60,593 nucleotides of DNA from Candidatus Giovannonibacteria bacterium (GCA_016186825.1 JACPKW010000004.1:196237-256829), one strand, 5' to 3'. Shown: positions 977 to 52,178, counted from the first letter of the stretch. Numbers and translations are program-made. The notes: generated by a model not told the origin, from the sequence alone.

Positions 977-1016
977 AATTTTTCATCAAATTTTTTTGCA
1001 AAGACTTCTAACGGGG
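925..1016. repeat. inverted-repeat element with CCCCGTTAGAAGT / ACTTCTAACGGGG termini (long copy 1)
   Basis: 13-nt arms at 925-937 and 1004-1016 are exact reverse complements. One arm supplies the last codons and stop of pilC (SPR*); the other lies in the 5' part of the pilin ORF. An adjacent CGGGGCTCGCCCCG mini-hairpin (916-929) competes for the same CCCCG. Confidence 0.8.
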
Positions 1017-3396: not shown

Positions 3397-3406
3397 TTTT
3401 CGTTTT

Positions 3407-3509
3407 CCCCCGTTAGAAGCTCACACGGGGCATTAAACCTCTTTGTTTGCTAAAATCGAACCGCATTATCCTCCCGGAAAACCGCGGAGGAATTCTGCTT
3501 CTGACGGGG
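3407..3509. repeat. inverted-repeat element with CCCCGTTAGAAGC / GCTTCTGACGGGG termini (long copy 2)
   Basis: Arms at 3407-3420 and 3497-3509 are complementary with one mismatch. They enclose ~75 nt containing an internal CCTCCCGG...CCGCGGAGG hairpin. The element sits immediately 5' of the pilB start on the minus strand. Confidence 0.7.
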
Positions 3510-3599
3510 TTTAGGCTAAACTATAGCACGAGATTTTCGAAATCACATCTGATCTCTATTAGATAATTATAGTCGTATTTATGAGGTATAATATACAAA

Positions 3600-4541
3600 T
3601 TGAAAAAAACGCTTAAAAAATACTTTATTCCCCACAAGGAGAACGATAATAAACCCCATTTTCTGCGCCCGGTGGCTGTTTTCGTTGTTCTCGCAGCTAT
3701 CTTAATTGCCGAAGCTGTTTTTCTTCTTGATATTTTTTTTGCGTTTCCGAAATCGAATTTCATCGCGGCCGTTTTGCCGAGTGTTCTAGTTGATCTCACG
3801 AATGAATCCAGGGCCCAAGAAAATATGATGCCGCTTCAAACAAATTCGCTTCTGGAAAAAGCCGCAAAACTGAAGGCAGAGGATATGGCTAAACGCGGAT
3901 ACTTTTCACATGTGGCGCCAGACGGCAAATCGCCTTGGCATTTTTTTGACGAGGTGGGGTATCTTTATCAGGGTGCCGGCGAAAATCTTGCTGTGAATTT
4001 TTTTGATTCAAGCGATGTTGCGCGGGCCTGGATGAATTCGACCGGACACCGCGCAAATATTTTGAATAAACAATTTAAGGAAATAGGGATTTCGACAGCC
4101 GAGGGTGTTTATGAAGGGAGAGTCGCGGTTTTTGTTGTCCAGTTTTTTGGAACACCTGCCATCGCTAACTCGGGTTTCAGAGCAACCGGAACCGCAGGCA
4201 CTACGCCCGATATAAAAATTACCGAGGCAGAAAATAAAATGTCGATTGCGCTTGCTGTGTCGCAAGAAAATGCCGAAACAACCTCCGTCTTATCCGTTAG
4301 TAACGAAAAGGCAGCCGCGTCTGTTGGTGAAAAGATATTTTCGGCTCCGCGTATGGCGCTCAATTACGTTTTCGGGGCGCTTGGCATAATTGTGATGCTC
4401 GCGCTGATGCTTAAAATTTTTGTGAAAATAAAAATCCAGCACCCCGTTTTGATCGCAAACGGAGTCCTATTGATAATCACAATGCTTGGATTCGCGGCGG
4501 CAAATGATTATTTAAACTTTTTGTTTACAAAAATTATCTAA
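3600..4541 (+). CDS. membrane-anchored CAP/SCP (YkwD-like) domain protein
   Basis: N-terminal TM helix, then a CAP-domain pattern (AEDMAKRGYFSHVAPDG...GENLA...WMNSTGHRANIL...IG), then C-terminal TM helices. TTG start lies only 8 nt after a TATAAT at 3587-3592. Confidence 0.65.
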   Translation: MKKTLKKYFIPHKENDNKPHFLRPVAVFVVLAAILIAEAVFLLDIFFAFPKSNFIAAVLPSVLVDLTNESRAQENMMPLQTNSLLEKAAKLKAEDMAKRGYFSHVAPDGKSPWHFFDEVGYLYQGAGENLAVNFFDSSDVARAWMNSTGHRANILNKQFKEIGISTAEGVYEGRVAVFVVQFFGTPAIANSGFRATGTAGTTPDIKITEAENKMSIALAVSQENAETTSVLSVSNEKAAASVGEKIFSAPRMALNYVFGALGIIVMLALMLKIFVKIKIQHPVLIANGVLLIITMLGFAAANDYLNFLFTKII

Positions 4542-4547
4542 TTAGTA

Positions 4548-5606
4548 ATGACAGATCGGCAGATTTTTTATAAAAAAATCGTTTATCTTTTATTCGCTCT
4601 GATTTTAATAGCGGGTGTTTTTGTTTACTTGCTTTTAGTCCCGGCCCCGGATTTTCCGATCGGCGAAGTATTTACGATCCGTCAGGGCGAAGGATTGAAA
4701 GAAATCGCTACTAACTTGCACGAGCGCGGTTTCATCCGCTCAAGCTCGCTTTTTCAGCTCTCGGTTTCGTTTTGGGGCAAAAGTAAGAATTTGCAGGCGG
4801 GGGATTATTATTTTGAAGCGCCCGTTTCGCTTTATGAGATTGCAAAGAGAGTTTCGAGAGGCGATTTTGGCATAAAAATTTTTAAAATCACAATTCCGGA
4901 AGGCTCGAATTTAAAACAAATTGCGGATATTTTTGAAGGCGCCGGACTTTATAATAAGCAAAAAATTTTTGAATTGACGGGTTTGCCCGCGGTCATTGAT
5001 AAAAATCCGACAGTGCTTTCATCTGGCGACTTTTCAGAAAAGAGTCCGCTAGTCTCCAAAAAGCCTAAAAGTTTATCGCTCGAAGGCTATCTTTTCCCTG
5101 ACACTTATTTTTTTACCGAATACACCTCGCTCCCAAAAGCGCTCGAAAGGATGATTAGGAACTTAGAGGACAAAGTCACGCCTGAAATAAGGTCAGAAAT
5201 TGCGAGAAAGGGAAAAACAGTCCACGAGATTCTTACAATGGCTTCGTTGGTTGAAGAAGAGGCTACTAAAGACACTGATCGAAAGATGATAGCGGGAATT
5301 TTATGGAAAAGGCTTGCGATTGGCATGCCTTTGCAGGTTGATCCGACTGTCCGATACTCTACTGGAAAATATAACGGAGGAATTCCGGCGGAAGATTTTA
5401 AAATTGATTCTGCATTTAATACGTATAAATACGCGGGGCTTCCCCCGGGCCCAATTTCAAATCCGGGCATTGAAGCAATTCGCGCAACGCTTGAACCGAT
5501 CGAGTCGCCATATTTCTTTTATATGTCGGACGCGCACGATAACACTTATTACGCGGTAACTTTCGAAGAGCACAAAGAAAATAAGCGCAAATATTTGAAC
5601 AAATAG
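4548..5606 (+). CDS. mltG: endolytic murein transglycosylase MltG (YceG-like), copy 1
   Basis: N-terminal TM anchor plus YceG motifs LQAGDYYF, ITIPEG, ASLVEEEA, LQVDPTVRY and NTYKYAGLPPGPISNPG. Confidence 0.85.
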   Translation: MTDRQIFYKKIVYLLFALILIAGVFVYLLLVPAPDFPIGEVFTIRQGEGLKEIATNLHERGFIRSSSLFQLSVSFWGKSKNLQAGDYYFEAPVSLYEIAKRVSRGDFGIKIFKITIPEGSNLKQIADIFEGAGLYNKQKIFELTGLPAVIDKNPTVLSSGDFSEKSPLVSKKPKSLSLEGYLFPDTYFFTEYTSLPKALERMIRNLEDKVTPEIRSEIARKGKTVHEILTMASLVEEEATKDTDRKMIAGILWKRLAIGMPLQVDPTVRYSTGKYNGGIPAEDFKIDSAFNTYKYAGLPPGPISNPGIEAIRATLEPIESPYFFYMSDAHDNTYYAVTFEEHKENKRKYLNK

Positions 5607-5722
5607 TCTGCTTTACAATTTTTTTAAAAATATGTATTGCTTTTTTCATTTTGACCCAGAAGCTGAATAGCGGTTATATCTAAGTGAGTGTTCGTTTTTA
5701 AATTTTTACTCGAGGAGGTTCT

Positions 5723-6286
5723 ATGCTCAGAAAGCTGAATAAAAGTTATCCGGTTAATATAAGTTCAAAGCTGCGCAAAGATCACCGCTGGTTTGAAAAA
5801 GCACTTGAGCCAATCAAGAATAAGCTCTTGAGTGATAAACGCAAAGAGCTTGCTTTGACGGGGCCAAAACTTACGCCTCGTGAATTAGTTAAGATAGCCG
5901 ATGAGCTTGAGGAAATTCAAAGAGAGTTAAATCCCTTGCTGATTAGGCACAAAGAACTTTCCGACCAAATTGCTGCGCATTTCGGGCACACCGGGATCAA
6001 AGAAATCATCGGGAACCTCGGCCGAACGGAGATTTCTACGCCTTATATTATTAAGGTGGATCCAAAGATTATTGAAAAAGAAATGCCGGAAGAAATGGCT
6101 GCTATGACGGAGCGGAGGTTGGTTCCTGAAAGAATGCTTCTGCATCTGCAAAGAAACTGGGACGTGTTGTCGGCGGCTTTCTTAAAAGCCATCATGGGCA
6201 GGGTATCCATTTATATTACACTTCCGAGTTCGCAGAGGCCCGAGAGCGGGAGAACCTTTGATGAGGAAGAAGAGACTGCCGCTTAA
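5723..6286 (+). CDS. hypothetical protein (coiled-coil N-terminus, acidic C-terminus)
   Basis: Strong RBS GAGGAGG 5 nt upstream of the ATG, and a terminator directly downstream. No recognisable motif. Confidence 0.5.
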   Translation: MLRKLNKSYPVNISSKLRKDHRWFEKALEPIKNKLLSDKRKELALTGPKLTPRELVKIADELEEIQRELNPLLIRHKELSDQIAAHFGHTGIKEIIGNLGRTEISTPYIIKVDPKIIEKEMPEEMAAMTERRLVPERMLLHLQRNWDVLSAAFLKAIMGRVSIYITLPSSQRPESGRTFDEEEETAA

Positions 6287-6306
6287 AGAGCTTTTAAAAA
6301 AATTGA

Positions 6307-6341
6307 CCCGTTTCGGTGCGATCGAAACGGGCATTTTTTAT
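6307..6341 (+). terminator. rho-independent terminator (copy 1 of an identical pair)
   Basis: CCCGTTTCG-GTGCGAT-CGAAACGGG followed by CATTTTTTAT. This 35-nt string is identical to 7663-7697. Confidence 0.8.
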
Positions 6342-6415
6342 GCTGTTTAAGTAATTTCAGGAAGCGATATGCGTCTTAAGATTACGATATCTACGATCTA
6401 AAGGAGGCTGTTTTG

Positions 6416-7633
6416 ATGAACCTTAAAATAATTACGGCTATTTTTGCTGTGCTTCTGTTGAGTTTCATCCAGGCTGAATCGGCAGAGCTAATTAACGGCG
6501 GCTTTGAAACTGCGGGAGCTTCATTAAATGAGGCATTAAACTGGAAACTGGCGAAGTTTTGCAATAAGGGACATGTCAGGGTGAGAAGTCCGAGAAAATC
6601 GGGTTCTTGGTCGCTCAAGTTGCAGAACACTTCGGCTGATGACATTTCCTGTTCGTTTCAAAAAATTGTTTTTAACCAGCAGGAGTTAAAGCCCATTTTG
6701 TTAACTGGGTTTATCCGAGGAAATGTGAAAAAAACACCGAATGGATTTTTTGGGGCTACTCTATATGTAGAAATCCATCTCGTTGACGGCACGATTGTTT
6801 ACTGGAATTCGGCTCCGAATTTTGGGAGCTTCGCATGGCGGGAAGCGGGAATAAATCTTTCGAGCATCTATAAAGTGACTGGACCAATTGCGTATGTAAA
6901 CGTGATCCCGCTTCTGATGGATGGGACTGGCGCCGCCTACTTCGATAATTTAGTGATCCGGGAATTCGAACCGCGCGAGGCAGCGGTTACGCTGATGTTC
7001 GACGACGGACACGAATCTGCTTTCAATGTCGCAAAGCCGGTTTTGGATGCATACGGGCTTTGCGCTTCGGCCGCAGTCGTAACTGGAGAGATCGATAAGC
7101 CTGATTCAATGACAACAGCAGATTTGCAGGAGCTTGAAAACGATTGCTGGAGCATTTCTTCCCACAGTGAAACCCATGCTCATCTAGACGATATTCCAAT
7201 CGGCAAAGCGAGAAACGAAATGATCAATTCGAAAAAAACGCTCAAGAAGAAAAAGATCGAGGCAGTCAGTTTTGCCTACCCGTTTGGAGATTTTAATGGG
7301 GCGCTTTTTGCGGAATGCCAAAAACACTATGTCTCTTGTCGCGGAGTGAATGCTGGAGTAAACCCGACGCGAGGGCTTTACCCGCATGACGTTAAAACGC
7401 GGGTAGTAAAAAATACGACAACGCTTGGGGATGTGTGGAACTGGCTAAGCGAAGCTTGGGAAAAGAAAGCGTGGGTTGTAATAGTTTTCCATGTGATCGC
7501 TGATGATTGGGACGATGCTTACCATACTCCCGTTTCGGACTTCGAGGAGATGGCGGATCTTGTCGCTAATTCCGGACTCGACGTAATCACCTATGACGAA
7601 GGAGTCAGGCGCTACTCCGTCGGGAAGCCTTAG
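6416..7633 (+). CDS. secreted polysaccharide deacetylase (NodB/CE4-like) with N-terminal carbohydrate-binding-like domain
   Basis: Signal peptide MNLKIITAIFAVLLLSFIQAESA, an NGGFE motif typical of CBM4_9-like modules, NodB motifs TLMFDDGHES and HSETH, and RBS AAGGAGG 8 nt upstream of the ATG at 6416. Confidence 0.7.
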   Translation: MNLKIITAIFAVLLLSFIQAESAELINGGFETAGASLNEALNWKLAKFCNKGHVRVRSPRKSGSWSLKLQNTSADDISCSFQKIVFNQQELKPILLTGFIRGNVKKTPNGFFGATLYVEIHLVDGTIVYWNSAPNFGSFAWREAGINLSSIYKVTGPIAYVNVIPLLMDGTGAAYFDNLVIREFEPREAAVTLMFDDGHESAFNVAKPVLDAYGLCASAAVVTGEIDKPDSMTTADLQELENDCWSISSHSETHAHLDDIPIGKARNEMINSKKTLKKKKIEAVSFAYPFGDFNGALFAECQKHYVSCRGVNAGVNPTRGLYPHDVKTRVVKNTTTLGDVWNWLSEAWEKKAWVVIVFHVIADDWDDAYHTPVSDFEEMADLVANSGLDVITYDEGVRRYSVGKP

Positions 7634-7662
7634 CCGCAGTCAATAAAGACTTATGAGTCCTG

Positions 7663-7697
7663 CCCGTTTCGGTGCGATCGAAACGGGCATTTTTTAT
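7663..7697 (+). terminator. rho-independent terminator (copy 2 of an identical pair)
   Basis: Same 35-nt string as 6307-6341. The ORF-track start at 7653 translates this hairpin and is therefore unlikely to be real. Confidence 0.8.
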
Positions 7698-7787
7698 TTT
7701 AAAGTTGTTAACAGTTTTTTTGTTGGTGATTTTTTAATTTCTTGCTATATCAAAAGAGGAATCCTTAAATTTTTAGCCGAAAGCGAG

Positions 7788-8714
7788 GTGAGTGAAGTGA
7801 GATTTTGGAATGACTGTACCGCTTACAATCAAATTCGGAAAAATGCTGCTATCGTCGTTCTTAAGATCGAAGGAAGGTGGCGACTGTTTTACGAAGATGT
7901 CAAGCTCGAAAAAAGGGCTTTGCCTCTCATAGCATTTCTTAATCCTGAAGAGGAGAGAATAGTTTACGAGATTGGCTTTGCTCGTTTGAGTCCGTATCTT
8001 TCAGAACACAACGGGCATACCCGCAGAAGGCCTTATCTATGCAGGCGCAATCATTATCCCGCTCCTGTTTGCATGGATTTTGAAAAATGTCTGCGTTTTG
8101 TGCTGGCACTTGTAGTAGAGGCCAAAATGAGCGGGAAGAGCTCAAGATCTTATAGCTGGCATGATAAGGCCTACGGAGTCTCATTCATGAGACGAGGGAC
8201 AAGTTTTGAGTTCAAGGAAAAGAGCCATTGCCAGTATTGGCACGGCGTTCGTTTTTCAATTCATCCTTTGGATATCGACCTAGTGGAGTGGTTCAGGCAT
8301 GAGGAGATGTGGGGTGAATGGTGGCAAACGATAAGATTCCCGTGGTTTGAGGATAACGGGCTCGCTTGGCTTAGGAGTAAGAAAAAAGGGTATTTTTCAC
8401 TGCGCACCTTGCTCTGTCAAAAGGGATATGAAGGGTTTCGGAATGTTAACATCATGACGGCTTTTTGCTTGCGGTTAGATCTAAACAATCGGGAGCTGAT
8501 GTTTGATTTCCTCGAAACACACTATCCGTCCTTATGGACGGCTGTGGTCAATAATCTGAAGAAGACAGAGAGAATCGGCGCAAAAAACGGCAATCCAAGT
8601 CAGCATCTAAGCCTGGTAGAAGTGGGAAACAGGAGGAGAGGATCGAGAGTGTTCCAAGCGTTCAATAACAAAAGCATACCGCGAATTTTAAAGGATACTG
8701 CAATTTTCCAATAG
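7788..8714 (+). CDS. hypothetical Trp-rich protein
   Basis: ORF-track ORF 7653-8714 trimmed to in-frame GTG codons at 7788/7797 that follow GAGG. The upstream part overlaps the terminator. No family recognised. Confidence 0.45.
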   Translation: MSEVRFWNDCTAYNQIRKNAAIVVLKIEGRWRLFYEDVKLEKRALPLIAFLNPEEERIVYEIGFARLSPYLSEHNGHTRRRPYLCRRNHYPAPVCMDFEKCLRFVLALVVEAKMSGKSSRSYSWHDKAYGVSFMRRGTSFEFKEKSHCQYWHGVRFSIHPLDIDLVEWFRHEEMWGEWWQTIRFPWFEDNGLAWLRSKKKGYFSLRTLLCQKGYEGFRNVNIMTAFCLRLDLNNRELMFDFLETHYPSLWTAVVNNLKKTERIGAKNGNPSQHLSLVEVGNRRRGSRVFQAFNNKSIPRILKDTAIFQ

Positions 8715-8732
8715 GAAAGGAGGTAGGGCAAC

Positions 8733-10079
8733 ATGTCGAGTCCGGCAAAGATAGAGGAATCTAGTCCCGCTTTGCCGGAAAACGGTAAAGCCTTGGGTCC
8801 GGTTCGGAAAAAAAAGTTTGCTGTCCGGTTTGACGCAGAAGTCGCTTTTGAAGTTTTCTCAACGCTCGAGGATTGGTGGCGCGAGCGGCGGGGTTATCTT
8901 GCAAAAATCGTACCCCCGCACCATTATTATCTTCCCCGAGGCATAGAGAGAAATTCAACTGAACTATGCCGCTGGCTGTTTTTTATGGCAATTCCGATGC
9001 GCGGCGGGATTAACTCGGATGACGCGTTCAGATTTATGAAGGCCTTTTACGAATCTGCTCCCGAGTTTTTTGATCCTCATGTCGTGCAAAAGAAAAATCC
9101 GGATGAGATTATGTACGCCGTTAGAGCGGTTGCCGGTGCGATTCATAATGGCGGGAGCAAAGGCAGAAAAAAGGCCGGCACTTTTTCTTACAAAATGGAA
9201 GAACATGTGGCGGCCTGGATTGTAAATGCTCGAGTTCTTGTTGAGAGATGGGGCGGTGATGTGAGGAAGGTTTTTGAATCCGTCGCGGATTTTGAAGAAG
9301 CGTTTGCCCGTGTGGACTATGAACGAAATGAGTTTGGATTCATTGGAATGAGGAGAAAGATTTTTTCCCTCCTCACTTTGTGGATGCAGGATTTTCATAT
9401 GATTCACAAATTCCCAATGCCGCTCATTGTTGATTTTCACACAATCCGGATGCTCTTGCAGCACCGGATTTTGCAGACAGAGTACAAGATTCTGGGGCCG
9501 AACAATACTAAAAATCCTCTGCGTGTTCGGCCTGAAAGCATGTGGAATTACACGGCACTACGCGTCACTGAAAAACTGGTTGATCAAATCATCACGTGGT
9601 CCCAGAAATTCTGTGAGAAGAGAAATTTAGTTCCTTACGATGTGGCGCATGGCCTTTGGTACAACTCAAGACTTTTGTGCGCTTCATATTTAGGCAACAG
9701 ATCGAAGGAAAAAAAGCTAGATGATAATAGGCGAACAGTAACGGAGTTCCTCATCGACGCCGAGCCTCTAAAGACTCGCGCGGGCTGGCCAAAAGACTAT
9801 CGCGATCCCTGCAGGCACTGTCCGGTTGAAACAACATGCAAAGTAGCCATACCTTCCGGTCCGTATTTTGATTGGGGCGTAATGGTGAAAGCGGGAAAGC
9901 ATGTGCTCTTCCCCGGGCGGCAAAGAAGATTTGCCGGAATTAAATGGCGAGAGATGTCAGGGTCATTCAGGAGCACGAAAACGCGGCATTTTCGGTCGGC
10001 AACAAACGGGAATGGCAACGGAAAGGAGGAAAACGCCAAAGCTCACGAAGCTTTGCAGTTGCCATTCTACGAAGATTGA
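8733..10079 (+). CDS. hypothetical protein with EndoIII/HhH-GPD-like signature (possible DNA glycosylase fold)
   Basis: RBS AAAGGAGG. FIGMRRKIFSLLTLWM resembles the HhH GxG-K segment (Lys retained). PLIVDFHTIRMLL resembles the PVDTHV catalytic-Asp segment. C-terminal CRHCPVETTC resembles part of an Fe-S cluster loop. Function is tentative. Confidence 0.45.
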   Translation: MSSPAKIEESSPALPENGKALGPVRKKKFAVRFDAEVAFEVFSTLEDWWRERRGYLAKIVPPHHYYLPRGIERNSTELCRWLFFMAIPMRGGINSDDAFRFMKAFYESAPEFFDPHVVQKKNPDEIMYAVRAVAGAIHNGGSKGRKKAGTFSYKMEEHVAAWIVNARVLVERWGGDVRKVFESVADFEEAFARVDYERNEFGFIGMRRKIFSLLTLWMQDFHMIHKFPMPLIVDFHTIRMLLQHRILQTEYKILGPNNTKNPLRVRPESMWNYTALRVTEKLVDQIITWSQKFCEKRNLVPYDVAHGLWYNSRLLCASYLGNRSKEKKLDDNRRTVTEFLIDAEPLKTRAGWPKDYRDPCRHCPVETTCKVAIPSGPYFDWGVMVKAGKHVLFPGRQRRFAGIKWREMSGSFRSTKTRHFRSATNGNGNGKEENAKAHEALQLPFYED

Positions 10080-10112
10080 GGCCGCACCCATTCGGGGAGC
10101 GGCCTTTTTTCT
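10079..10112 (+). terminator. rho-independent terminator
   Basis: AGGCCGC-ACCCATTCGGGGA-GCGGCCT followed by TTTTTTCTTTC, overlapping the stop codon of 8733-10079. Confidence 0.75.
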
Positions 10113-10232
10113 TTCTAAATTTTTATATATAATCTGGGCGATATGAATAAGGGAAAAGGGAAAGTTTTTGTAGCAACATACACGAATCAGGATTTAAAGA
10201 TTCAAATGGTCGTCGGTCCGCTGAAATTTTCA

Positions 10233-10271
10233 CCCCGTTAGATAAGAAGCTATCTAACGGGGCAGGCGAAG
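10233..10271. repeat. short hairpin copy of the CCCCGTTAGA/TCTAACGGGG repeat family with GGGGCAGGCGAAG tail
   Basis: CCCCGTTAGATA-AGAAGC-TATCTAACGGGG is a perfect 12-bp hairpin. The tail GGGGCAGGCGAA recurs at 24276-24287. Confidence 0.85.
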
Positions 10272-10403
10272 TAAGAGGGGAGGAGATTAAGTGGTATTTT
10301 GCGAATGGCACACTTTTGTGTTATTCACGAAACGCAGAATATTGTTACCAATTATGCATACTTTACACACTGTACAATGCAAAAAAGGGATTTTTAGTAT
10401 AGT

Positions 10404-10437
10404 GTAGTGCACAAAAAGTCCCGATTTTGTGCACTAC
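10404..10437. other. 13-bp perfect hairpin in a long non-coding region
   Basis: GTAGTGCACAAAA-AGTCCCGA-TTTTGTGCACTAC read directly. A second palindrome ATAGTACAAAATTGTACTAT lies ~35 nt downstream. Confidence 0.8.
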
Positions 10438-10516: not shown

Positions 10517-10546
10517 TTGACATATTGAGATGCTTTCGTATATAAT
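10517..10546 (+). promoter_or_regulatory. sigma70-like promoter for the Fic/methyltransferase operon
   Basis: TTGACA (10517-10522), 18-nt spacer, TATAAT (10541-10546), ~85 nt upstream of the Fic ATG. Confidence 0.5.
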
Positions 10547-10578
10547 TGGATATAGTTATCTATATAGCATCAAACCTG

Positions 10579-10616
10579 CCTGCCTACCCTGCCTGCCGGC
10601 AGGCAGGGTAGGCAGG
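10579..10616. repeat. perfect 38-nt GC-rich palindrome (family shared with 42460-42479)
   Basis: CCTGCCTACCCTGCCTGCC|GGCAGGCAGGGTAGGCAGG lies between the predicted promoter and the Fic start codon. The core CCTGCCTGCCGGCAGGCAGG is identical to the one at 42460-42479. Confidence 0.9.
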
Positions 10617-10629
10617 ATATATCAGAAAT

Positions 10630-11688
10630 ATGAGCGAAAACAGCTTCAACAAACGAATAAAATTAAGCCAGGAGATACTTGGCAAGATCGCTAAAATTGA
10701 CGAGTTCAAGGGTCTTTGGCATGGCAGTTTAAGGCTAAGCCCTCAAATTTTGGGTCGGCTTAAGTCATCGGTGATCATTACGTCTACCGGTGCCTCAACC
10801 CGTATAGAAGGATCGAAAATGAGCGACGAGGAAGTGGCTCGTCTTTTGCGTGGTCTGAAATCTAATCCTCCCAAGAATCGTGATGAGCAGGAAGTCGCCG
10901 GTTATGCCGATTTACTCGGAAGAGTTTTTGACCACTACCGCACGCTTAAATTGACCGAGAATAATATTTTGCATTTCCATAGCATTCTTTTGCAATTCTC
11001 TAACAAAGATCAATCGCATAAAGGCAAGTACAAGGACTCCGATAATGCGGTGGTTATGAAAAATGAGAAAGGAGAAGAGATTGTTCTGTTCAATCCGACT
11101 AAACCTTATTTAGTCAAGCCAGAAATGGAAGCGATTATTGACTGGACAAATCAGGAGCTCGAAAAGAAAGAACTCCACCCCGTGCTTATCATTGCTAACT
11201 TTGTCTTTGAATTTTTGGCTATTCACCCGTTTCTTGATGGCAACGGCCGTCTTAGCCGCGCCCTGACAAACTTGCTTTTGCTTCGCAACGATTATGCCTA
11301 TGTACCGTATGCTTCGCTTGATGAAATTATTGAGGAACGCAAGGACAGTTACTATCTCGCTCTCAGGGCAACGCAAAACAATCACAAAACAGAGAATGAA
11401 GATATTACGCCGTGGCTGAATTTCTTGCTTGATGCATTGCTGACTCAAGGCGATGTTGCTCGAAAACTGATGAATGCTGAACAGCCGGAAAAGCTTTTGT
11501 CCGAAAGACAAGAGCAGGTTTTCGCTATCCTAAAAGACGGCGAAACATTGGGCGTGGCAGAGATCGACAAACGTCTCAATGGTTCTGTGCCGCAGGTTAC
11601 AATCAAACAATCTCTCGCCAGATTGGTGGCTTTGCGTTTGGTTGAACGAGTCGGCCAAGGCAGGGGCGTGAGATATAAGAAAATATAA
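10630..11688 (+). CDS. Fic/DOC family protein with C-terminal winged-helix-like domain
   Basis: Canonical Fic motif HPFLDGNGRLSRALTNLLLL, a Fic_N-like N-terminus, and a C-terminal segment (GVAEIDKRL...LARLVALRLVERVGQGRGVRY) typical of wHTH. Confidence 0.85.
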   Translation: MSENSFNKRIKLSQEILGKIAKIDEFKGLWHGSLRLSPQILGRLKSSVIITSTGASTRIEGSKMSDEEVARLLRGLKSNPPKNRDEQEVAGYADLLGRVFDHYRTLKLTENNILHFHSILLQFSNKDQSHKGKYKDSDNAVVMKNEKGEEIVLFNPTKPYLVKPEMEAIIDWTNQELEKKELHPVLIIANFVFEFLAIHPFLDGNGRLSRALTNLLLLRNDYAYVPYASLDEIIEERKDSYYLALRATQNNHKTENEDITPWLNFLLDALLTQGDVARKLMNAEQPEKLLSERQEQVFAILKDGETLGVAEIDKRLNGSVPQVTIKQSLARLVALRLVERVGQGRGVRYKKI

Positions 11689-11694
11689 AACTAT

Positions 11695-11886
11695 ATGTCA
11701 GGGGAAATCGCCAACAAAACTAAACAGGAAACTTACTACAGATGCACTCATTGCGGAGATGAGATTTTTTGGAATACTTATAAAAAGTTTACCCACTGCA
11801 AGTGCAGGAAAATTTGGGTAGATAGTTGTGAGGATTACATTCGGATTGGTGGCAAAGAAGAAGACCGTAAGGTGATCAAAAAATAA
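11695..11886 (+). CDS. small Cys-rich (zinc-ribbon-like) protein
   Basis: 63 aa with CTHC...HCKC...C spacing. Sits 6 nt after the Fic stop and 4 nt before the methyltransferase start, which implies co-translation in the operon. Confidence 0.5.
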   Translation: MSGEIANKTKQETYYRCTHCGDEIFWNTYKKFTHCKCRKIWVDSCEDYIRIGGKEEDRKVIKK

Positions 11887-11890
11887 ATTT

Positions 11891-13000
11891 ATGGCAAACG
11901 AATTTCTTACAAACGCAAAAAAGGTGAAAAACGACGAGTTTTATACTCAGTACAGCGATATTCAGAAAGAGATTGAGGCGTATTTGGAATACAACAAAAA
12001 CGCATTTCGCGGCAAGGTTGTGTATTGCAACTGCGACGATCCGTTCGAGAGCAATTTTTTTCGCTATTTCGTACTCAATTTCAATAAACTTGGATTGAAA
12101 CGACTTATCACCACCAGTTACAAACCCTCGCCGGTAGCCAACACGCAACTAGGACTGTTTGGCGACGACAAGACTCTTACTAAATCAATAGGCCGTCCGA
12201 AAGTAACTGCTAATAAATTTATTATCAATGAAGTGAAAGACATAGATGGCGATGGCGAGTTCAATTTGAAGGATGTTGCTAAGCAGTTGAAGGCAAACAA
12301 AAACAATGAATGGACGCCGCTTGACGGCGACGGCGATTTTCGTAGCGAGGAATCAGTCGATCTACTGAAACAATCCGACATTGCAGTAACCAATCCGCCA
12401 TTTAGCCTATTTCGCGAGTATATAAAACAACTTGTTGATTACGATAAAAAGTTTTTGATCATTGGCAACATGAACGCTATTACCTACAAAGAAGTCTTTC
12501 CGTTACTTAGAGATAACAAAGTTTGGTTAGGTAATAACTATAAAGTCAATGCCGGCGCGATGTTTTTTGAGATACCAGAAAAAATTGCCAATTTGGAGCA
12601 AGTCCGTGAGGTTAAGACAAATGAGAGTGGCAAGAAGGTTTATATTACACGAGTGCAAGGCATTCGTTGGTTTACTAATCTTGATCACGGCCGACGTCAT
12701 GAGCCGCTTCAGCTTATGACCGAAAAAGAAGTGATAAAGTTTACAACGAAAAAACCTTTTGAAAAATATGATAACTACGATGCAATAGAGGTTTCGTTAG
12801 TTAAAAATATTCCGAGTGATTATAAAGGTGTCATGGGCGTACCAGTTAGTTTTTTAGATAGTTACAACCCTGATCAATTCGAAATTTTAGGCTCGAATCG
12901 TGGAGTTGACCAAGACCCAAATAAAATATATGGCAAAGGCTCTTATTTAAATGGGAAAGAGGTCTATAAAAGGTTATTTATCAAACATAGAAAAAAATAA
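11891..13000 (+). CDS. N6-adenine DNA methyltransferase (EcoRI-methylase-like family)
   Basis: Motif [11 protein letters not shown]. The N-terminal [15 protein letters not shown]...[18 protein letters not shown] pattern recalls Pfam EcoRI_methylase-type enzymes. Confidence 0.75.
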
Positions 13001-13001
13001 T

Positions 13002-14171
13002 ATGAAAACAATTTTAACAACCAACATAACTGTTCAAGAAATCTGTGACGGATTTGTCTATAACGAACTTGAGGGCAAGGGTTTGTTTGGCTTGTCTGGT
13101 AAGCTCACCATTCAACCGGAGTATCAGCGAAACTATATTTATGCCTCTGACGGAGGAAAAAGAGAAATGGCCGTTATTGAATCAGTCCTCAAGGGATACC
13201 CGATAGGATTGATTTATTTCAACAAAGTTTCTGACGATAATCTAGAAGTTTTAGACGGACAACAGCGTATTACCAGTCTTGGGCGGTTTGTAACTGACAA
13301 ATTTGCCGTCAAAGACGAAAACGGTAATGAACAATATTTTGGTGGTATGGCAAAAGACAAGAAAACCAAAATTCTGGAAACGAAATTGCTCATTTATGAA
13401 TGTGAAGGAACGGAAAGCCAAATAAAAGAATGGTTCAGAACCATAAATATTGCTGGTGTTCCGCTCAATAATCAGGAATTACTTAACGCCGTATATTCTG
13501 GCCCGTTCGTAACTAGAGCCAAAGAGGAGTTCAGTAATAGTCAAAACGCCAATATTCAAAAATGGAGTGCGTATGTTTCCGGTAGTGCGAACCGACAGGA
13601 ATTTTTGGAATGTGCTCTTGATTGGGTAAGCAAAGGCAATATTGGCGATTACATGAGCAAACATCGCAAAGACAAAAATATTGATGAGTTGAAAAAATAT
13701 TTTAACACCGTCATTGATTGGGTATCTAGCATATTTACTGACGTAGAAAGCGAAATGCGCGGGCTTGAATGGGGACGACTTTACAAGGAATATCACAAAA
13801 AATCTTATAATCTAGCTAAAGTATCAGCCGAGGTGCGTAAGCTCTATGGCGATCCGTACATCAAAAATCGCAAAGGCATTTTTGAGTATATTCTAGGCGG
13901 TTCAACTGACACAAAATTACTTGAGGTTCGAGTTTTTGATGAAGCGACTAAAAGATCTACTTACGAATTACAAACCGCCAAAGCAAAGAAAAAAGAAGAA
14001 TCAAATTGTTCTCTCTGTGCCGTCGGCCACGATGCGAACAAGGGAAAGATTTGGAGTTTTGGTGAAATGGAAGCCGATCATGTATCAGCTTGGAGCAAGG
14101 GTGGCAAAACAACTGCCAAAAATTGTGAGATGTTGTGCAAAACGCACAATCGAGCAAAGGGTAATCGGTAA
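13002..14171 (+). CDS. DUF262 (GmrSD N-terminal/ParB-like) plus HNH endonuclease fusion
   Basis: DUF262 motifs [11 protein letters not shown] and [14 protein letters not shown]-terminal HNH is CSLC...[34 protein letters not shown] at 13002 lies 1 nt after the methyltransferase stop; the ORF-track upstream extension overlaps the methyltransferase. Confidence 0.8.
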
Positions 14172-14286
14172 TGCAAACAAGATCACTGAACTGGGAGAAG
14201 TGCGAGCGTGATGATTGGAGTGTGTGGGATGAGGTAAGGTTTTGAGTCACCGAAGCTTGTCTAGAAAATGATAATGAATATGCAAT

Positions 14287-16119
14287 ATGAAGCTCACAGA
14301 AATATCAATTGAAAATTTTAGATCAATTACATCCATTAAGAATGTAAAGATTTTTCCTACCCAAGCACTTCTTGGCGAAAATAATGCTGGAAAATCAAAT
14401 GTCCTATATGCGATTGATGCCTATTTATCGGCTGGTTCAGGTGGTATCAACGAGAGTGACTTTCAGGATAAAACAAAGCCCATAATTATTGCGGCTAAAT
14501 TTTCTTTGGCCTCGCCAAACTTAAAGAAAATCTGGCGGCCGTACATGATAAATGATGAGTTGATTCTTGAAAAACATATCTGGATTGAAGAAGACGCGCG
14601 CACTAATAAAGAAACAATTAAAAACGAATTTCACGGTTACCAAGCTGAACCGAAACAGTGGTTTTTATCTATCAAGAAAATTAAGGAACAAAAAGGAGAT
14701 CGGCCAAAATGGAAAGATATCGTTTCTGAGAATAGCTTACCGGATTACTTTTTAAATAATGACAGCTGTACAAAAGACGACTATGGCAAAGGATTAGAGA
14801 AATATTTTCAAGAAAACGATATTGAATACGATGAACCAGATTTAAGTGCGACGCAAGCTCTCGGTTTTCAGAGTAAAGCAATTTCTAATCTACCCAAATT
14901 TTATCTTTTAAGAGCTGAGACAAATTATTCTGATGAGACAGACAAGCGGTCGTCAACATCTACTTTTAGAAAGTTAATGGCTGATCTCACAGATCGGATC
15001 ATCAAAAACGATCCAAAATATCAAAAAATTGAAGATGCACTTAAGACAGTAAACAACTTACTTAATGAGACAAAGACTGAATCAACCGAAAGCAATGGAC
15101 GTCTAGATAGTCTTGCAACTATTGAAGACAGCATCAAAAAGATTTTGTGTAATTTGATGCCATCGGTAGAAAAAGTAAAACTAAAAGTTGCAACGGAAGA
15201 TGTTACGGCAATATTTTCTAAAGGTGTAGAAATAACAGTCGACGATGGTGTCGAAACAGACGTCTTATTAAAAGGACATGGCCTGCAAAGATGTATTATT
15301 TTTTCTCTACTACAGGCTTTGATTTTAAATGAAAGAAATCAGCTCGTATCATCTGAAGGAATAGAAGAATTAAATCATCCAATTATCCTTGGCATTGAGG
15401 AACCAGAGCTTTATATTCATCCACAATTAGGAAAGTTGTTTTATGATGTTTTAAACTCCTTTGCAGACAAAGACCAAGTGATATATACGACCCACTCTCC
15501 GCGTTTTATAGACGTGTATAAATATGATTCTATAGCGTTAATTAAAAAAACCAAATCGGAAGGAACAAAATTTATTAATTGTGACCAGACCGCTTTTGAT
15601 GGATTGATTGATAGAAAAGTTTTTCAAGGACTAACACAACTAAATACTGATGTGAATGAGCTATTCTTTGCAAAGAATGTTCTTGTGGTCGAGGGTCCTG
15701 AAGACAAAATTGCTATCACGGAGACCATAAGGAAGCTCGGCAAAATAAAAATGAGAATTGAAGAAGTAGACGTTACAATTATTGCGGCTGGTGGCAAACA
15801 ATCAATCCCATTTTTTGTTCGTGTACTAAATGCATTTAAAATTAACTATGCGGTTTTGCACGATCTTGATATTGAAGAAGGAATGCCTATAGATTCAAAA
15901 AACACGGAAGAAAGTAGAAACAAAACTATTGCAGACTTAGCACCTCAAAAAGTTATTACTTTCCCTATAAAACTAGAAAACACTCTCGGACTTGAAAAGG
16001 GTCACTTAAAAGATCAGTACGAGGCATTGTCCTATTTTTCCGATCATTCAAATATTAACTCCGATCTAGAGAATATTATTAAGCAAGCGACCAGTTTAGT
16101 CGGGATTAAATTTGAATAA
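14287..16119 (+). CDS. OLD-family nuclease (ABC-type ATPase plus Toprim)
   Basis: IENFRSI...GENNAGKSN (Walker A), ILGIEEPELYIHPQ (Walker B/D-loop), TTHSP (H-loop), and C-terminal Toprim LVVEGPEDKIAI ... AVLHDLD. Confidence 0.8.
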   Translation: MKLTEISIENFRSITSIKNVKIFPTQALLGENNAGKSNVLYAIDAYLSAGSGGINESDFQDKTKPIIIAAKFSLASPNLKKIWRPYMINDELILEKHIWIEEDARTNKETIKNEFHGYQAEPKQWFLSIKKIKEQKGDRPKWKDIVSENSLPDYFLNNDSCTKDDYGKGLEKYFQENDIEYDEPDLSATQALGFQSKAISNLPKFYLLRAETNYSDETDKRSSTSTFRKLMADLTDRIIKNDPKYQKIEDALKTVNNLLNETKTESTESNGRLDSLATIEDSIKKILCNLMPSVEKVKLKVATEDVTAIFSKGVEITVDDGVETDVLLKGHGLQRCIIFSLLQALILNERNQLVSSEGIEELNHPIILGIEEPELYIHPQLGKLFYDVLNSFADKDQVIYTTHSPRFIDVYKYDSIALIKKTKSEGTKFINCDQTAFDGLIDRKVFQGLTQLNTDVNELFFAKNVLVVEGPEDKIAITETIRKLGKIKMRIEEVDVTIIAAGGKQSIPFFVRVLNAFKINYAVLHDLDIEEGMPIDSKNTEESRNKTIADLAPQKVITFPIKLENTLGLEKGHLKDQYEALSYFSDHSNINSDLENIIKQATSLVGIKFE

Positions 16120-16123
16120 ATTT

Positions 16124-17695
16124 ATGGCAAAAGATTTTCAAAAAATAATATGTCCGCACTGTAAGGTTGAGATCTCACTTGACGAGGCAATCACGCATCA
16201 GTTCGAAGAGTCGATTAAAAAGCAGATCACTGAGGAACAACAGGCAAAACAGGCTGAATTTGCGAAGCGTGAAAAAGAAATTACTGATAAAGAAAAAGCA
16301 ATTGCTGAGTCAAAAAAGTCGCTAGAAAAGGAAGTCGCTGAACAAACAGAGAAAGCAAAAGTTGAACTCGAAAAGGAAATAAGGGCTAAGCTATCGAAAG
16401 AAAAAGATAGTGAAATTAATGCCCTATCTGAGGACCTGAAAGCAAAAGAAAAGAGTCTCGTTGAGGCTCGACAAGCCGAACTTAATTTACGTCGAGAAAA
16501 AACAAAATTTGAGGACGAAAAACAAGCGTTTGAGTTGGAGAAACAGCGACAGCTTGATCAGGAAAGAGAGAAAATAAAAGCAGAGGCATTAAAATCTTTT
16601 GAGGTTGAACAACAGACGAAAAATAAAGACAAGGAACAAGAAATTAAACTACTAAACGGGCAACTTGAGACTAACAAAAAACAACTTGAAGAAGCTCGAT
16701 CGGCAGAGTTAGAAATTCGCAAATCAAAGATTGATTTAGAAAATGATAAAAGAGCATTTGAGCTTGAAAAGCAACGCCAGCTTGATGCCGAGAGGGACAA
16801 AATCCGAGAAGATGCACAGAAAAAAGCCGAAGAAGATATGCACTTAAAAATTCTTGAAAAAGAGAAGCAACTTCAGGATGCTATGAAAGCCAATATGGAA
16901 TTACAGAGAAAACTTCAGCAAGGATCACAGCAAACTCAAGGAGAAGTTTTAGAGCTTGAACTGGAGGGGTTGCTTGGTAATTGGTTTACTCACGATACCA
17001 TTGAACCGGTCCCTAAAGGCATAAACGGTGCTGATGTAATACAAAAAGTTATCAGTAATTCCGGCCAGCAGTGCGGCTCTATAGCTTGGGAGTCCAAACA
17101 TACTAAAGCTTGGAGTGAACTATGGGTTGCCAAGCTAAAAGAGGATCAAAGAAAAGTAAACGCTGATGTGGCTGTTCTTGTCACAGAAGTCCTGCCAAAG
17201 GATATTAAAAATTTTGCTTATCGGGATGGTGTTTGGATCACAGATCAGAATTCTATTTTTGGTTTAGGTACAGCATTAAGAATCCAGCTTATTCAAGCCA
17301 CAACAATAAAGCTCGCAAGTGTCGGGAAAAATGAAAAAATGGAAGTGCTTTATGGATATTTATCAGGTACTGAATTTAGACATAAAGTTGAGGCAATCGT
17401 AGAAGCCTTTGTTGGTATAAAGCAAGACTTAGACAAAGAACGGCGAGCGATGACCAGAATTTGGGCAAAAAGAGAAAAACAAATTGAACAGGTAGTTAAT
17501 AATACGGCAGGAATGTACGGAGATGTTCAAGGTTTGCTTGGTACAGCTATACAGCCAATAGCCGCCTTAGAAGCCGGATACGATCTGATTGAGGATGATG
17601 AACAAGATGAGATTGAGGAAACAGATAAGAAAAAACCAGAGCCCAAAAAGCAAGTTGTAGAGGAAACCATTGATCCAAAAGATATTCCATTTTAG
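16124..17695 (+). CDS. DUF2130-like protein: CxxC ribbon, long coiled coil, PD-(D/E)xK-like C-terminal domain
   Basis: ATG at 16124 lies 4 nt after the OLD stop. N-terminal CPHC motif, ~250-aa Glu/Lys-rich coiled coil with an internal duplication, and a C-terminal GADVIQKV...IAWESKHTKAWS...ADVAVLVT pattern. DUF2130/RmuC-like assignment is from memory. Confidence 0.65.
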   Translation: MAKDFQKIICPHCKVEISLDEAITHQFEESIKKQITEEQQAKQAEFAKREKEITDKEKAIAESKKSLEKEVAEQTEKAKVELEKEIRAKLSKEKDSEINALSEDLKAKEKSLVEARQAELNLRREKTKFEDEKQAFELEKQRQLDQEREKIKAEALKSFEVEQQTKNKDKEQEIKLLNGQLETNKKQLEEARSAELEIRKSKIDLENDKRAFELEKQRQLDAERDKIREDAQKKAEEDMHLKILEKEKQLQDAMKANMELQRKLQQGSQQTQGEVLELELEGLLGNWFTHDTIEPVPKGINGADVIQKVISNSGQQCGSIAWESKHTKAWSELWVAKLKEDQRKVNADVAVLVTEVLPKDIKNFAYRDGVWITDQNSIFGLGTALRIQLIQATTIKLASVGKNEKMEVLYGYLSGTEFRHKVEAIVEAFVGIKQDLDKERRAMTRIWAKREKQIEQVVNNTAGMYGDVQGLLGTAIQPIAALEAGYDLIEDDEQDEIEETDKKKPEPKKQVVEETIDPKDIPF

Positions 17696-17700: not shown

Positions 17701-18126
17701 ATGGAAATCGAATCGAAGCAACAAATTTTGGAGCGGCGGAAAGAGATTGAGCAGGAGCTCATGGATATGCTCAAAGAAACTGAGCGCGATTTTACCTTGG
17801 ATCGTGTTCGGGATGCTATTTATAACGAAGAGGATAACGACGACATGATGAAAGTTGTGACAATGTTTGATCGTGGCGGCGATACAACAGAGCTTGAAAA
17901 TGTGCTCGAGCTAGTAACCGATGCGTGGAATTATTTTCCGCACAAAGTCCTCGGCGGTATCTCCCCGGCCGAGAAGTTGTTGGAGCATCAATCTCAATCA
18001 CCTTTGTATGAATGTCCGGAATGCAAATTGAAGTATCGAGAAAAGAAATGGGCAAAAGCATCTGAGGCATGGTGCCGTGAGCACAAGAGCTGTAATTTAG
18101 AAATAACCGCCCACGCCGAAAAATAA
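17701..18126 (+). CDS. hypothetical protein with C-terminal CxxC...CxxWCxxHxxC domain (paralog of 23755-23997)
   Basis: Starts 5 nt after the DUF2130-like stop. The C-terminal 40 aa YECPECKLKYREKKWAKASEAWCREHKSCNLEITAHAEK closely matches the small ORF at 23755-23997. Confidence 0.55.
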   Translation: MEIESKQQILERRKEIEQELMDMLKETERDFTLDRVRDAIYNEEDNDDMMKVVTMFDRGGDTTELENVLELVTDAWNYFPHKVLGGISPAEKLLEHQSQSPLYECPECKLKYREKKWAKASEAWCREHKSCNLEITAHAEK

Positions 18127-23754: not shown

Positions 23755-23997
23755 GTGAAGAAAAACTTGAGGTGTAAGCTGCCCAAAACAATGCGTCGAC
23801 TTCGCCGAGGGCAAGAAAAATGGAATATAATCAATAACATGGTCAAGGTAACCAAAGAAGATAAAAAATTATATCAGTGCGAAGAATGCGGTTTTCACTA
23901 TGCCAAGAAAGAATGGGCTGAAAAATGCGAGGCCTGGTGCCGGGAGCACAAGAGTTGCAATATCGAGATCACCGCACATGCCGAGGAAAACAAATAA
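23755..23997 (+). CDS. small protein with CxxC...CxxWCxxHxxC domain (paralog of the C-terminus of 17701-18126)
   Basis: YQCEECGFHYAKKEWAEKCEAWCREHKSCNIEITAHAEENK. Start is uncertain: GTG at 23755 (GAGGA 5 nt upstream) or ATG at 23839. Confidence 0.5.
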   Translation: MKKNLRCKLPKTMRRLRRGQEKWNIINNMVKVTKEDKKLYQCEECGFHYAKKEWAEKCEAWCREHKSCNIEITAHAEENK

Positions 23998-49027: not shown

Positions 49028-49543
49028 AATTCCCCCCTTCCATTTTTTAAATAACTAATTGGAGTCAGACATAAATTTTATAAATTGTCAAAATAAATGG
49101 GTAATGAGCGACATTCAAATATGGTTTCATGATTTCAGTATTACTAAAAACAACTAGATTTAACAGCATAATAAGGATTACGCAAATTTTTCAGCGGGAG
49201 GAGTTGGTTTCTGCGAAATAATTAGACAGGCGCATACATATTAAATTCCTAAATTTTTCTGAATATTTTGGTCGATTTTATAGTGATCACCTGAAGGTTT
49301 TTTGTGATTTTGTTAAATGAGACGGAATTCAGGGAAATTTTACAAAAAAAAGAAAAATTATTTTATCCCGCTCTAAAACAGAAACTTTCGATCATTCAGT
49401 TTCTGTGGGAAGACTCTGACAATGTGATTTCTAAAAAGTTTATTCTAGACAGCATAAATAGAATCAATAGTGTTTCATAGTTTTAAGCACATCGTTTGGG
49501 ATTACTCTAGACTTCTAGACTAATTATATGTTATAAATATACT

Positions 49544-51237: not shown

Positions 51238-51293
51238 TTGATATTTTTTAAAAATCGTTGTACTATAGGTTATAATGACAGTTCTGAAAGGAG

Positions 51294-51968: not shown

Positions 51969-51991
51969 ATGACCGGGCATTTAGTTTTTAT

Positions 51992-52062: not shown

Positions 52063-52178
52063 TTGGCGCAAGTAAAACCTGTGAGATAGAAGCCACTAAA
52101 CAGCGCTAGTGGTTTTTCACTCATGGCTATTCGGAGGGGCATTTCTTTTTTTACTTTTCCCTTATTTTCTCCACTTTT

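Follow-up and report, generated by a model that had tools for sequence, protein, structure and literature searches.

Does an OLD-family nuclease gene that runs straight into a gene for a DUF2130 protein form a functional pair with it, or have the two merely come to lie side by side? The question is raised by a 60,593-nucleotide stretch of DNA from Candidatus Giovannonibacteria bacterium (GCA_016186825.1 JACPKW010000004.1:196237-256829), hereafter called the window, in which positions are counted from the first letter. Here, an open reading frame (ORF) of 610 amino acids (aa) at 14287-16119 encodes an OLD-family ATP-binding cassette (ABC) ATPase with a Toprim nuclease domain. It is followed on the same (+) strand, at 16124-17695, by an ORF of 523 aa for a DUF2130 (PF09903) protein made up of a knuckle, a coiled-coil stalk, a PD-(D/E)xK nuclease domain and an acidic tail. 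An earlier note, made from the DNA alone, had proposed that the two genes constitute a defence system. In this work we show that OLD-DUF2130 is a compact, horizontally mobile two-nuclease cassette within a defence island, and we regard it as an OLD system whose nuclease partner is optional and had not been described before. We put at about one half the probability that the cassette is an optional two-nuclease module against mobile elements, in which OLD would sense aberrant DNA and the DUF2130 protein would process that DNA.

Identity of the two ORFs

The OLD gene ends with the stop codon TAA (16117-16119), and a spacer of 4 nucleotides (nt), ATTT, separates it from the DUF2130 start codon, ATG, at 16124. 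An alternative TTG start at 16112 would overlap OLD, and the N-termini of homologues (MAKDFQKI.../MSKNFQKI...) confirm the ATG. No Shine-Dalgarno sequence is visible ahead of the DUF2130 start. The DUF2130 gene stops with TAG (17693-17695) and, 5 nt on, the ATG at 17701 opens an ORF of 141 aa. ORF positions and both spacers are thus as the earlier note had described them.

By its sequence, the first ORF encodes a full OLD-family ATPase-Toprim protein. It matches AAA_15 (7e-33) and OLD-like_TOPRIM (1.7e-16) in Pfam and the 'Old' model of PADLOC (4e-69), where the best GajA model reaches 3e-33. Among solved structures the nearest relative is TsOLD, the class 1 protein from Thermus scotoductus (6P74; 2e-29), with similarity spanning residues 368-547. 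The motif set is intact: Walker A (G30-E-N-N-x-G-K-S-N38), Walker B/D-loop (E371-E-P-E374), H-loop (T402-H-S-P405), the conserved Toprim Glu (E469-G-x-E-D473) and the DxD cluster (D526-x-D528, within H525-D-x-D528). All of these hallmarks, which had been read from the sequence before, are unchanged throughout a 13-sequence alignment of the OLD clade (52-89% identity).

The second ORF was previously associated with DUF2130, and a hidden Markov model check bears this out: it matches PF09903 (COG4487) with 227.3 bits against a gathering cut-off of 26.7 (2.5e-67, residues 241-482). Both proteins have their nearest named relatives in Patescibacteria.

We compared the locus with the described OLD classes. 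The protein is class 1-like by sequence, yet it has a DUF2130 partner here and recurrently, while most members of its clade are solitary or lie beside restriction-modification (R-M) genes. With regard to class 2 (Gabija), no helicase ORF occurs among the neighbours between 10.6 and 18.6 kb. With regard to class 3 (retron), there is no reverse transcriptase (RT) domain among the neighbours, and an Rfam scan of the window gives only a tRNA. Class 4 (PARIS) does not apply, the ATPase and Toprim domains being contained within a single 610-aa ORF.

The pairing recurs in other genomes

Loci for comparison (L-numbers) came from metagenomic, genomic, plasmid, IMG/VR and Logan sequences. The DUF2130-side scan of metagenomes yielded a best 80 loci, 79 of them non-identical; related strains may be included, only identical C-termini having been merged. 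An OLD-type gene neighbours DUF2130 in 9 of the 79, and in 5 of the 26 with 1.9 kb or more of sequence on each side. All nine OLD genes lie on the same strand as DUF2130, and six are immediately adjacent to it, with gaps of -17 to +75 nt and in both gene orders. The remainder are found 341-862 nt away, with an intervening gene in one locus (L145). When flanking genes were grouped by clustering of all ORFs, OLD formed by far the largest cluster (15 of 88 loci, counting the window, its close relatives and four loci from the OLD scan). Moreover, AAA_15 (7) and OLD-like_TOPRIM (6) head the Pfam families among 114 immediate DUF2130 neighbours, ahead of PDDEXK_1 of the AddAB type (4), LexA/Peptidase_S24 (4), UvrD (2), AAA_13 (2) and SIR2 (2), with each R-M family matched at most twice. 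By our own estimate, genomes contain far fewer OLD than R-M genes. The association is also local: OLD-type matches number 9 in the 233 kb lying no more than 2.2 kb from DUF2130, compared with 1 in the 226 kb beyond (Poisson P ~3e-4).

The OLD-side scan, with one genome per species and again the best 80 loci, placed DUF2130 immediately beside OLD in four, from Elusimicrobia, Planctomycetota, Chloroflexi and Aminicenantes genomes, and pairs are now known from at least five phyla. Around 29 loci of the OLD clade, DUF2130 is the most frequent single Pfam family (5 loci), and nucleases of the DUF2130/RmuC type rank among the commonest genes to adjoin this clade. The class 1-type 'Old' model of PADLOC is the best match for 8 of 10 partner OLDs. 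A variant is carried by the Aliarcobacter butzleri plasmid NZ_CP104379.1 (L174, 31476-36682), where the order is DUF2130-GajA-GajB with a 1-nt spacer and the Gabija system is complete (GajA, PADLOC 2e-190; GajB, UvrD-type). Since the pairing recurs elsewhere, the arrangement seen first in this one genome shows an association beyond chance.

RmuC is the other bacterial family that unites a coiled coil with a PD-(D/E)xK nuclease, and it is found in the position of DUF2130. In one locus (L186, 545-3780) an RmuC gene (PF02646), whose product begins with a hydrophobic helix, overlaps by 4 nt the start of an OLD that is 69% identical to that of the window. In a WOR-3 genome (L041, 583-3746) RmuC again lies directly upstream of OLD. 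In our view, no other single observation argues as strongly that OLD and its partner are functionally linked as this replacement by an architecturally equivalent protein.

The cassette moves between R-M contexts

In blastn comparisons, similarity of the window to its relatives L007 and L093 starts at 14189/14192 and stops at 17605 (L007) or 17990 (L093). The cassette of L007 is flanked by a type III R-M system upstream and by Mrr downstream, and the flanks of L093 differ too. The left edge of the cassette, in the spacer between the HNH and OLD genes, holds 37 nt (14192-14228, + strand; blastn against L007, L093 and L094) that are left over from a type III restriction gene, res, and correspond to its 3' end. 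This sequence still terminates a res gene in L007 and L094; therefore the ancestral order was mod-res-OLD-DUF2130, with a different R-M system gained later upstream in the window. The relic shows that the upstream R-M genes were exchanged by recombination while OLD-DUF2130 stayed.

Insertion of the pair as a unit is seen in two other loci. In L101 it separates the two genes of a Tsp45I system, that for the endonuclease and that for the methylase. The L123 locus (739-10430) reads addB-OLD-DUF2130-addA with spacers of 21-75 nt, placing the pair inside the operon for AddAB, the analogue of RecBCD. The latter is noteworthy because activation of P2 OLD is tied to RecBCD/AddAB function. Separately, five short-read assemblies in Logan (L177-L181) carry an identical OLD-DUF2130-141-aa segment on contigs of 3.9-4.5 kb that break just beyond the cassette, as would be expected if the cassette flanks differ between co-existing strains.

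Linkage is optional for both partners

A considerable body of evidence weighs against an obligate two-gene system. The loci of each scan are the 80 best matches to the query and thus a non-random sample, and genes in the compared loci were called by simple ORF rules. Linkage is a minority arrangement on both sides, being found in ~11-19% of DUF2130 loci and 4/80 OLD loci. In L094 (3197-7524), whose DUF2130 is 89% identical to that of the window, the OLD slot holds an unknown 380-aa gene and a HerA ATPase; the slot is bounded by the same res 3' end as the cassette of the window, a clean module swap beside DUF2130. L001 (81% identical DUF2130) has an SNF2 fragment and a 100-aa ORF upstream and no OLD, and L134, with a DUF2130 86% identical to that of L101, has an AAA_13 ATPase in place of OLD. 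SIR2-HerA is found downstream of DUF2130 in L011 and L107. Relatives of the OLD protein at 51-77% identity are likewise mostly without DUF2130: the relative at 77% lies beside a type IIG R-M gene, that at 73% beside a CoiA-like nuclease, that at 71% beside HinfI R-M, that at 65% beside an EcoRI-type methyltransferase and DUF262-HNH pair as in the window, and that at 64% beside Shedu. We looked for co-phylogeny of OLD and DUF2130 and found none (Spearman -0.06 for pairwise identities); the C-terminal nuclease domains of DUF2130 hold 50-66% identity while the partner OLDs span 24-52%, and OLD-positive loci are scattered over the similarity clustering of DUF2130. None of 20 phage DUF2130 genes on IMG/VR contigs has an OLD neighbour. 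Lastly, both types of component are known to work alone, namely class 1 OLDs (PMC12392090) and ShdA, the RmuC protein of Shield (PMC10270631). The link is therefore optional for both partners, and the two-gene system proposed in the earlier note is not an obligate one, given DUF2130 orthologues of 81-89% identity without OLD and the lack of co-phylogeny.

These observations bring us to the main rival explanation, namely that a solitary class 1 OLD and an ShdA-like stand-alone DUF2130 are two autonomous single-gene defences, co-located and co-transferred via islands with no functional interaction. It draws on the close relatives that carry one gene singly, on the missing co-phylogeny, on a slot beside DUF2130 that may also be taken by HerA, SIR2-HerA, AAA_13 or R-M modules, and on the sufficiency of ShdA alone and of class 1 OLD alone for defence. 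Yet it would leave several regularities unaccounted for: OLD tops the immediate neighbours of DUF2130 despite its presumed rarity relative to R-M genes; the pairs are all on the same strand, in both orders and with spacers mostly of -17 to +75 nt; OLD enrichment falls off with distance from DUF2130; RmuC stands in for DUF2130 beside related OLDs; and the pair has been inserted as a unit within other operons. On balance we consider mere co-location a serious but rather unlikely explanation.

DUF2130 also has contexts of its own. On IMG/VR contigs (L187-L206), shorter DUF2130 genes lie in phage modules for DNA replication and nucleotide metabolism, next to genes for family A DNA polymerase, dCMP deaminase, thymidylate synthase, a Cas4-like exonuclease and an AAA ATPase, which suggests that the phage copies have a role in recombination or replication. 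The seven phage matches in GenBank are all to Helicobacter prophages. On plasmids, DUF2130 neighbours include toxin-antitoxin (TA), WYL, R-M and RT genes. Moreover, a LexA gene lies upstream of DUF2130 in L096, L147, L155, L124 and L156, divergently in several and with gaps of 77-79 nt in two; DUF2130 may be SOS-regulated in such lineages.

Predicted architecture of the DUF2130 protein

The earlier note had read from the sequence a CPHC knuckle, a Glu/Lys-rich coiled coil and a D...ExK domain, and both an alignment of 114 homologues and AlphaFold2 (AF2) models agree with this. C10 and C13 of the CPHC motif, together with D304, E323 and K325, are invariant across the 114 sequences, and P11 is conserved in at least 90%. 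The AF2 model (predicted local distance difference test score, pLDDT, 77 over the full length and 84 for residues 255-481) has a beta-knuckle at residues 7-18, helices at 19-190 and 198-287, and an alpha/beta core behind. The CPHC motif (residues 10-13; 16151-16162, + strand) sits in the beta-hairpin knuckle between model strands 7-9 and 16-18. With just two Cys present, completing a Zn site would take either a second protomer or ligands far from the motif. The N-terminus, MAKDFQKIICPHCKVEISLDE..., is a polar knuckle, and both sequence and AF2 model lack a hydrophobic segment there. It is followed by the Glu/Lys-rich helical stalk (residues 19-287; 16178-16984, + strand), which contains an internal duplication: residues 105-174 (16436-16645) and 181-250 (16664-16873) are 49% identical over 70 aa (E 1e-15). 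Homologues of ~415 aa have a single such repeat and the 692-aa homologue P0084 has more; therefore stalk length varies with the number of repeats.

The PD-(D/E)xK core (residues 288-373; 16985-17242, + strand) has the order alpha-beta-beta-beta-alpha-beta in the AF2 model, in which D304 (codon 17033-17035, + strand, as are the next two) opens strand 2 and E323-x-K325 (17090-17092 and 17096-17098) closes strand 3. Foldseek returned 12 matches at E<=1e-3 in the viral structure library BFVD, including Mrr-like, restriction endonuclease and PD-(D/E)XK proteins. The best matches in PDB are weaker (E 1e-3 to 0.1), to the PD-(D/E)xK domains of SPARDA DREN, DdmD, MspJI, Ecl18kI and PaqCI; Foldseek found no close solved structure, and a sequence search for a solved homologue gave coiled-coil noise only. 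DUF2130 has previously been placed in the PD-(D/E)XK superfamily, with function unknown (PMC3424549). Taken together, the invariant D/E/K residues, the modelled topology, the fold matches and this listing confirm a PD-(D/E)xK nuclease fold for the C-terminal domain, in line with the signature noted earlier; nuclease activity is predicted.

The protein ends with a disordered acidic tail (residues 484-523; 17573-17692, + strand; pLDDT <50 at 484-514) that terminates in ...DPKDIPF. A [DE]x(0-2)[IVLM]PF ending is found in 20/114 homologues and 13/86 loci. The C-terminal tip of the bacterial single-stranded DNA-binding protein (SSB) is DDDIPF, which recruits repair and replication proteins. By this resemblance, the DIPF tail of DUF2130 may be an SSB-tail mimic. 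We considered whether the tail is tied specifically to OLD linkage and found no clear correlation (4/15 OLD-linked against 9/71 other loci).

The description 'RmuC-like' in the earlier note holds for architecture and superfamily, and RmuC does occur beside related OLDs, but it does not extend to the sequence profiles. PF02646 does not match the DUF2130 protein at E<=0.01, and hhalign gives a probability of 0.2% in what is a weak test with two RmuC sequences only; DUF2130-RmuC homology at the sequence level was accordingly rejected as not significant. A comparable verdict applies to the Rad50/RloC-like layout: the architecture is similar, but Pfam detects no ATPase domain in the DUF2130 protein, and its CPxC lies at residues 10-13 and not at the apex of the coiled coil, as a Rad50/SbcC zinc hook would.

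A proposed mechanism

P2 OLD is an abortive tRNase triggered by aberrant DNA such as unprocessed ends, single-stranded DNA hairpins at replication origins and unresolved DNA in RecBCD-deficient cells; OLD binds hairpins and other aberrant DNA, and RecBCD, AddAB, SbcCD and lambda Exo/Beta counter its activation by competing for DNA (bioRxiv 10.64898/2026.07.10.737580). The OLD of Vibrio cholerae (Vc OLD) is a DNA nickase by which phage replication is blocked (PMC12392090). ShdA degrades DNA and defends by itself, with variable accessory genes around it (PMC10270631).

In the mechanism that we propose, both proteins of the cassette would act in one pathway against invading DNA. The DUF2130 protein would be a structure-specific DNA nuclease, acting as a dimer on intermediates of replication or recombination, a placement suggested by its SSB-like tail and by the genes around it (LexA, AddAB-type nucleases, phage replisome genes). 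By removing trigger DNA that arises from the cell itself it would keep OLD silent on self, and it would also attack foreign DNA. OLD would be an ATP-dependent sensor and abortive effector that fires once aberrant DNA accumulates or once a phage inhibits or swamps DUF2130. With a nuclease encoded alongside, OLD could move between hosts regardless of which repair enzymes they possess. Under this mechanism linkage would be optional because OLD could use host nucleases and DUF2130 could act alone; it would also explain the replacement by RmuC, the presence of DUF2130 beside other abortive ATPase modules and the insertion into addBA.

That OLD and DUF2130 cooperate functionally, in whatever manner, we judge to be an evenly balanced proposition. 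The specific mechanism, in which DUF2130 would control the pool of DNA that OLD reads, is put forward by analogy with P2 OLD and only tentatively. Just as speculative is a wider reading, according to which OLD with a coiled-coil PD-(D/E)xK nuclease (DUF2130 or RmuC) would be a new OLD class whose nuclease sets the activation threshold because it either removes or generates the trigger. In a broader version, DUF2130 would serve as a portable plug-in partner for OLD, Gabija, X-HerA and AAA_13, possibly docking on the replisome/SSB interactome via its DIPF tail.

The defence island and the upstream R-M genes

The surroundings of OLD-DUF2130 are a defence island, as the earlier note had supposed from an R-M-like operon upstream. 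Eight co-directional, close-packed genes encode Fic/SoFic, DUF7695, an EcoRI-type methyltransferase, DUF262/GmrSD_N+HNH, OLD, DUF2130, the 141-aa ORF and TspO. The left part (10517-11886, + strand) opens with a sigma70-like promoter (10517-10546; TTGACA-18-TATAAT, a 12/12 match) ahead of the Fic/SoFic gene (10630-11688; PADLOC 1e-40), followed by the DUF7695 mini-gene (11695-11886), whose 63-aa product is a zinc-ribbon protein. Directly upstream of OLD lies a type II R-M pair (11891-14171, + strand; Pfam and PADLOC), consisting of the EcoRI-type adenine methyltransferase (11891-13000, + strand; 5.9e-125) and the DUF262/GmrSD_N+HNH endonuclease (12951-14171, + strand; PADLOC REase_II 2.8e-82). 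No intrinsic terminator or promoter was found between the R-M genes and OLD. Over ~11-17 kb the G+C content is 36-40%, against 43-47% in the flanks.

This arrangement invites the explanation that OLD is a back-up abortive nuclease for the upstream R-M system, firing when anti-restriction proteins disable the latter (compare PrrC-EcoprrI and PARIS-Ocr), and that DUF2130 is incidental. Taken together, R-M methyltransferases adjoin the OLD clade more often than any other class of gene, with ~12 family matches (some overlapping) around 29 loci, and in the window, L007, L013, L184 and L207 it is R-M genes that immediately precede OLD. In particular, L207 (1756-5821) repeats the methyltransferase/DUF262-HNH/OLD trio of 11891-16119 at 51%/38%/65% identity, without DUF2130. 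Against this, the R-M type changes by locus (type II, IIG, III), the junction relic of another R-M system shows a swap while OLD-DUF2130 stayed, many OLD-clade members have no R-M neighbour, and the recurrence of DUF2130/RmuC is left without explanation. We therefore think it improbable that R-M is the true partner. As side observations, the trio of L207 is followed by DUF5655 and NERD genes, and R-M genes of several types lie upstream of many members of the OLD clade.

Equally improbable, in our view, is a module for DNA repair or recombination rather than defence, which like SbcCD/Rad50-Mre11 or RmuC would process hairpins or broken forks for the benefit of the cell: DUF2130 is unusually conserved for a defence gene (~50% identity across phyla), adjoins LexA (4 loci) and AddAB-like genes, with the pair of L123 within addB-addA, has phage copies in replication and recombination modules and an SSB-like tail, and a role outside defence is known for the archaeal OLD Cran1 (PMC12796447), but the neighbours in the window and most pair loci are R-M, Shedu, SoFic, Mrr and SIR2-HerA, the cassette is low in G+C, mobile and patchy among close relatives, and on plasmids it is DUF2130's company of TA, WYL and RT genes that is seen.

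The 141-aa ORF behind DUF2130 (17701-18126, + strand), which had been suggested to be a possible further component, probably does not belong to the OLD-DUF2130 system. It has no match in Pfam, PADLOC or NCBIfam. The N-terminal ~100 aa correspond to an island gene: ~100-aa versions sit behind DUF2130 only in the nearest relatives L093 and L094, the latter without OLD. The C-terminal ~40 aa form a zinc ribbon (CxxC...WC..H.SC) paralogous to the C-terminus of an 80-aa ORF at 23755-23997 (77% nt identity) and were acquired locally. We rejected it as a component on these three grounds. Similarity of this region to relatives ends at ~17990, which is probably the right edge of the island.

The YceG genes at 4548 and 18616 were considered as direct repeats flanking the island and discarded, as they are old paralogues with 31% identity and not repeats. 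Just left of the island, two large ORFs of 353 and 448 aa occupy 7653-10079; for the 448-aa ORF, Pfam, NCBIfam and PADLOC all gave no match, and for the 353-aa ORF the one database searched, Pfam, gave none either. Elsewhere in the window, G+C content falls to its minimum of 0.32-0.37 at 48000-54000, which may be a second acquired region.

Relation to described systems

The earlier note knew of no described pairing of OLD with DUF2130, and we found none either. PADLOC-DB v2.0.0 holds no family matching DUF2130 or the 141-aa protein at E<=0.01. The pair is absent from the searchable literature (subscription journals lying outside the search), where 'DUF2130', 'PF09903' and 'COG4487' are likewise without mention in a defence context. 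The OLD literature comprises classes 1-5 and 11 unnamed clades, the latter without neighbourhood information (PMC10568477, PMC12796447).

The class 1 OLDs (P2 Old, Thermus scotoductus OLD, Vc OLD) resemble the window protein in best models ('Old', TsOLD 6P74) and in the lack of a UvrD helicase, a retron or a split. However, they are defined as solitary, with no conserved neighbour, whereas the OLD of the window and those of at least 13 other non-identical loci are tightly coupled to DUF2130, or in two loci to RmuC. Gabija is alike in being a two-gene operon of an OLD-family protein (GajA) and a DNA-handling partner (GajB, a UvrD-like helicase) thought to read DNA ends. It differs in that this partner is an SF1 (superfamily 1) helicase instead of a coiled-coil PD-(D/E)xK nuclease, and in that GajA-GajB linkage is obligate. 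In Shield (PMC10270631), ShdA is likewise a coiled coil ending in a PD-(D/E)xK nuclease, found in defence islands with accessory partners that vary by subtype. ShdA, however, has a membrane anchor and belongs to the RmuC family, in contrast to DUF2130 with its CPxC knuckle and no significant RmuC profile match. Moreover, no Shield subtype includes OLD, and the system is reported only in Pseudomonas.

In PrrC-EcoprrI, RloC and PARIS, an ABC-ATPase-linked nuclease lies beside a DNA-targeting enzyme that it possibly monitors for inhibition or overload, a logic that by analogy might apply to OLD and DUF2130; beyond the ABC fold, the window proteins share no homology with PrrC and RloC. SbcCD/Rad50-Mre11 similarly joins an ABC ATPase to a nuclease and has both CxxC and a long coiled coil, and SbcCD is reported to counter P2 OLD activation. 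There, the coiled coil and apex CxxC are carried by the ATPase and Mre11 is a phosphoesterase, whereas DUF2130 carries its coiled coil and N-terminal CxxC on a PD-(D/E)xK nuclease.

Implications

Few ATPase-nuclease defence genes are as widespread as the class 1 OLDs, which continue to be regarded as solitary. How they are switched on and how they avoid autoimmunity is only now emerging, the current model being aberrant DNA together with competition by host nucleases. If our reading is true, a natural operon of OLD and a dedicated DNA nuclease would offer a direct genetic handle on OLD control. Should the two turn out to act independently, DUF2130 would nonetheless be a promising candidate for a new Shield-like defence nuclease that works by itself. 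The pairing would, in addition, place DUF2130 (COG4487) in a functional context for the first time, this being a large and highly conserved family that occurs in many phyla, plasmids and phages and has no described function.

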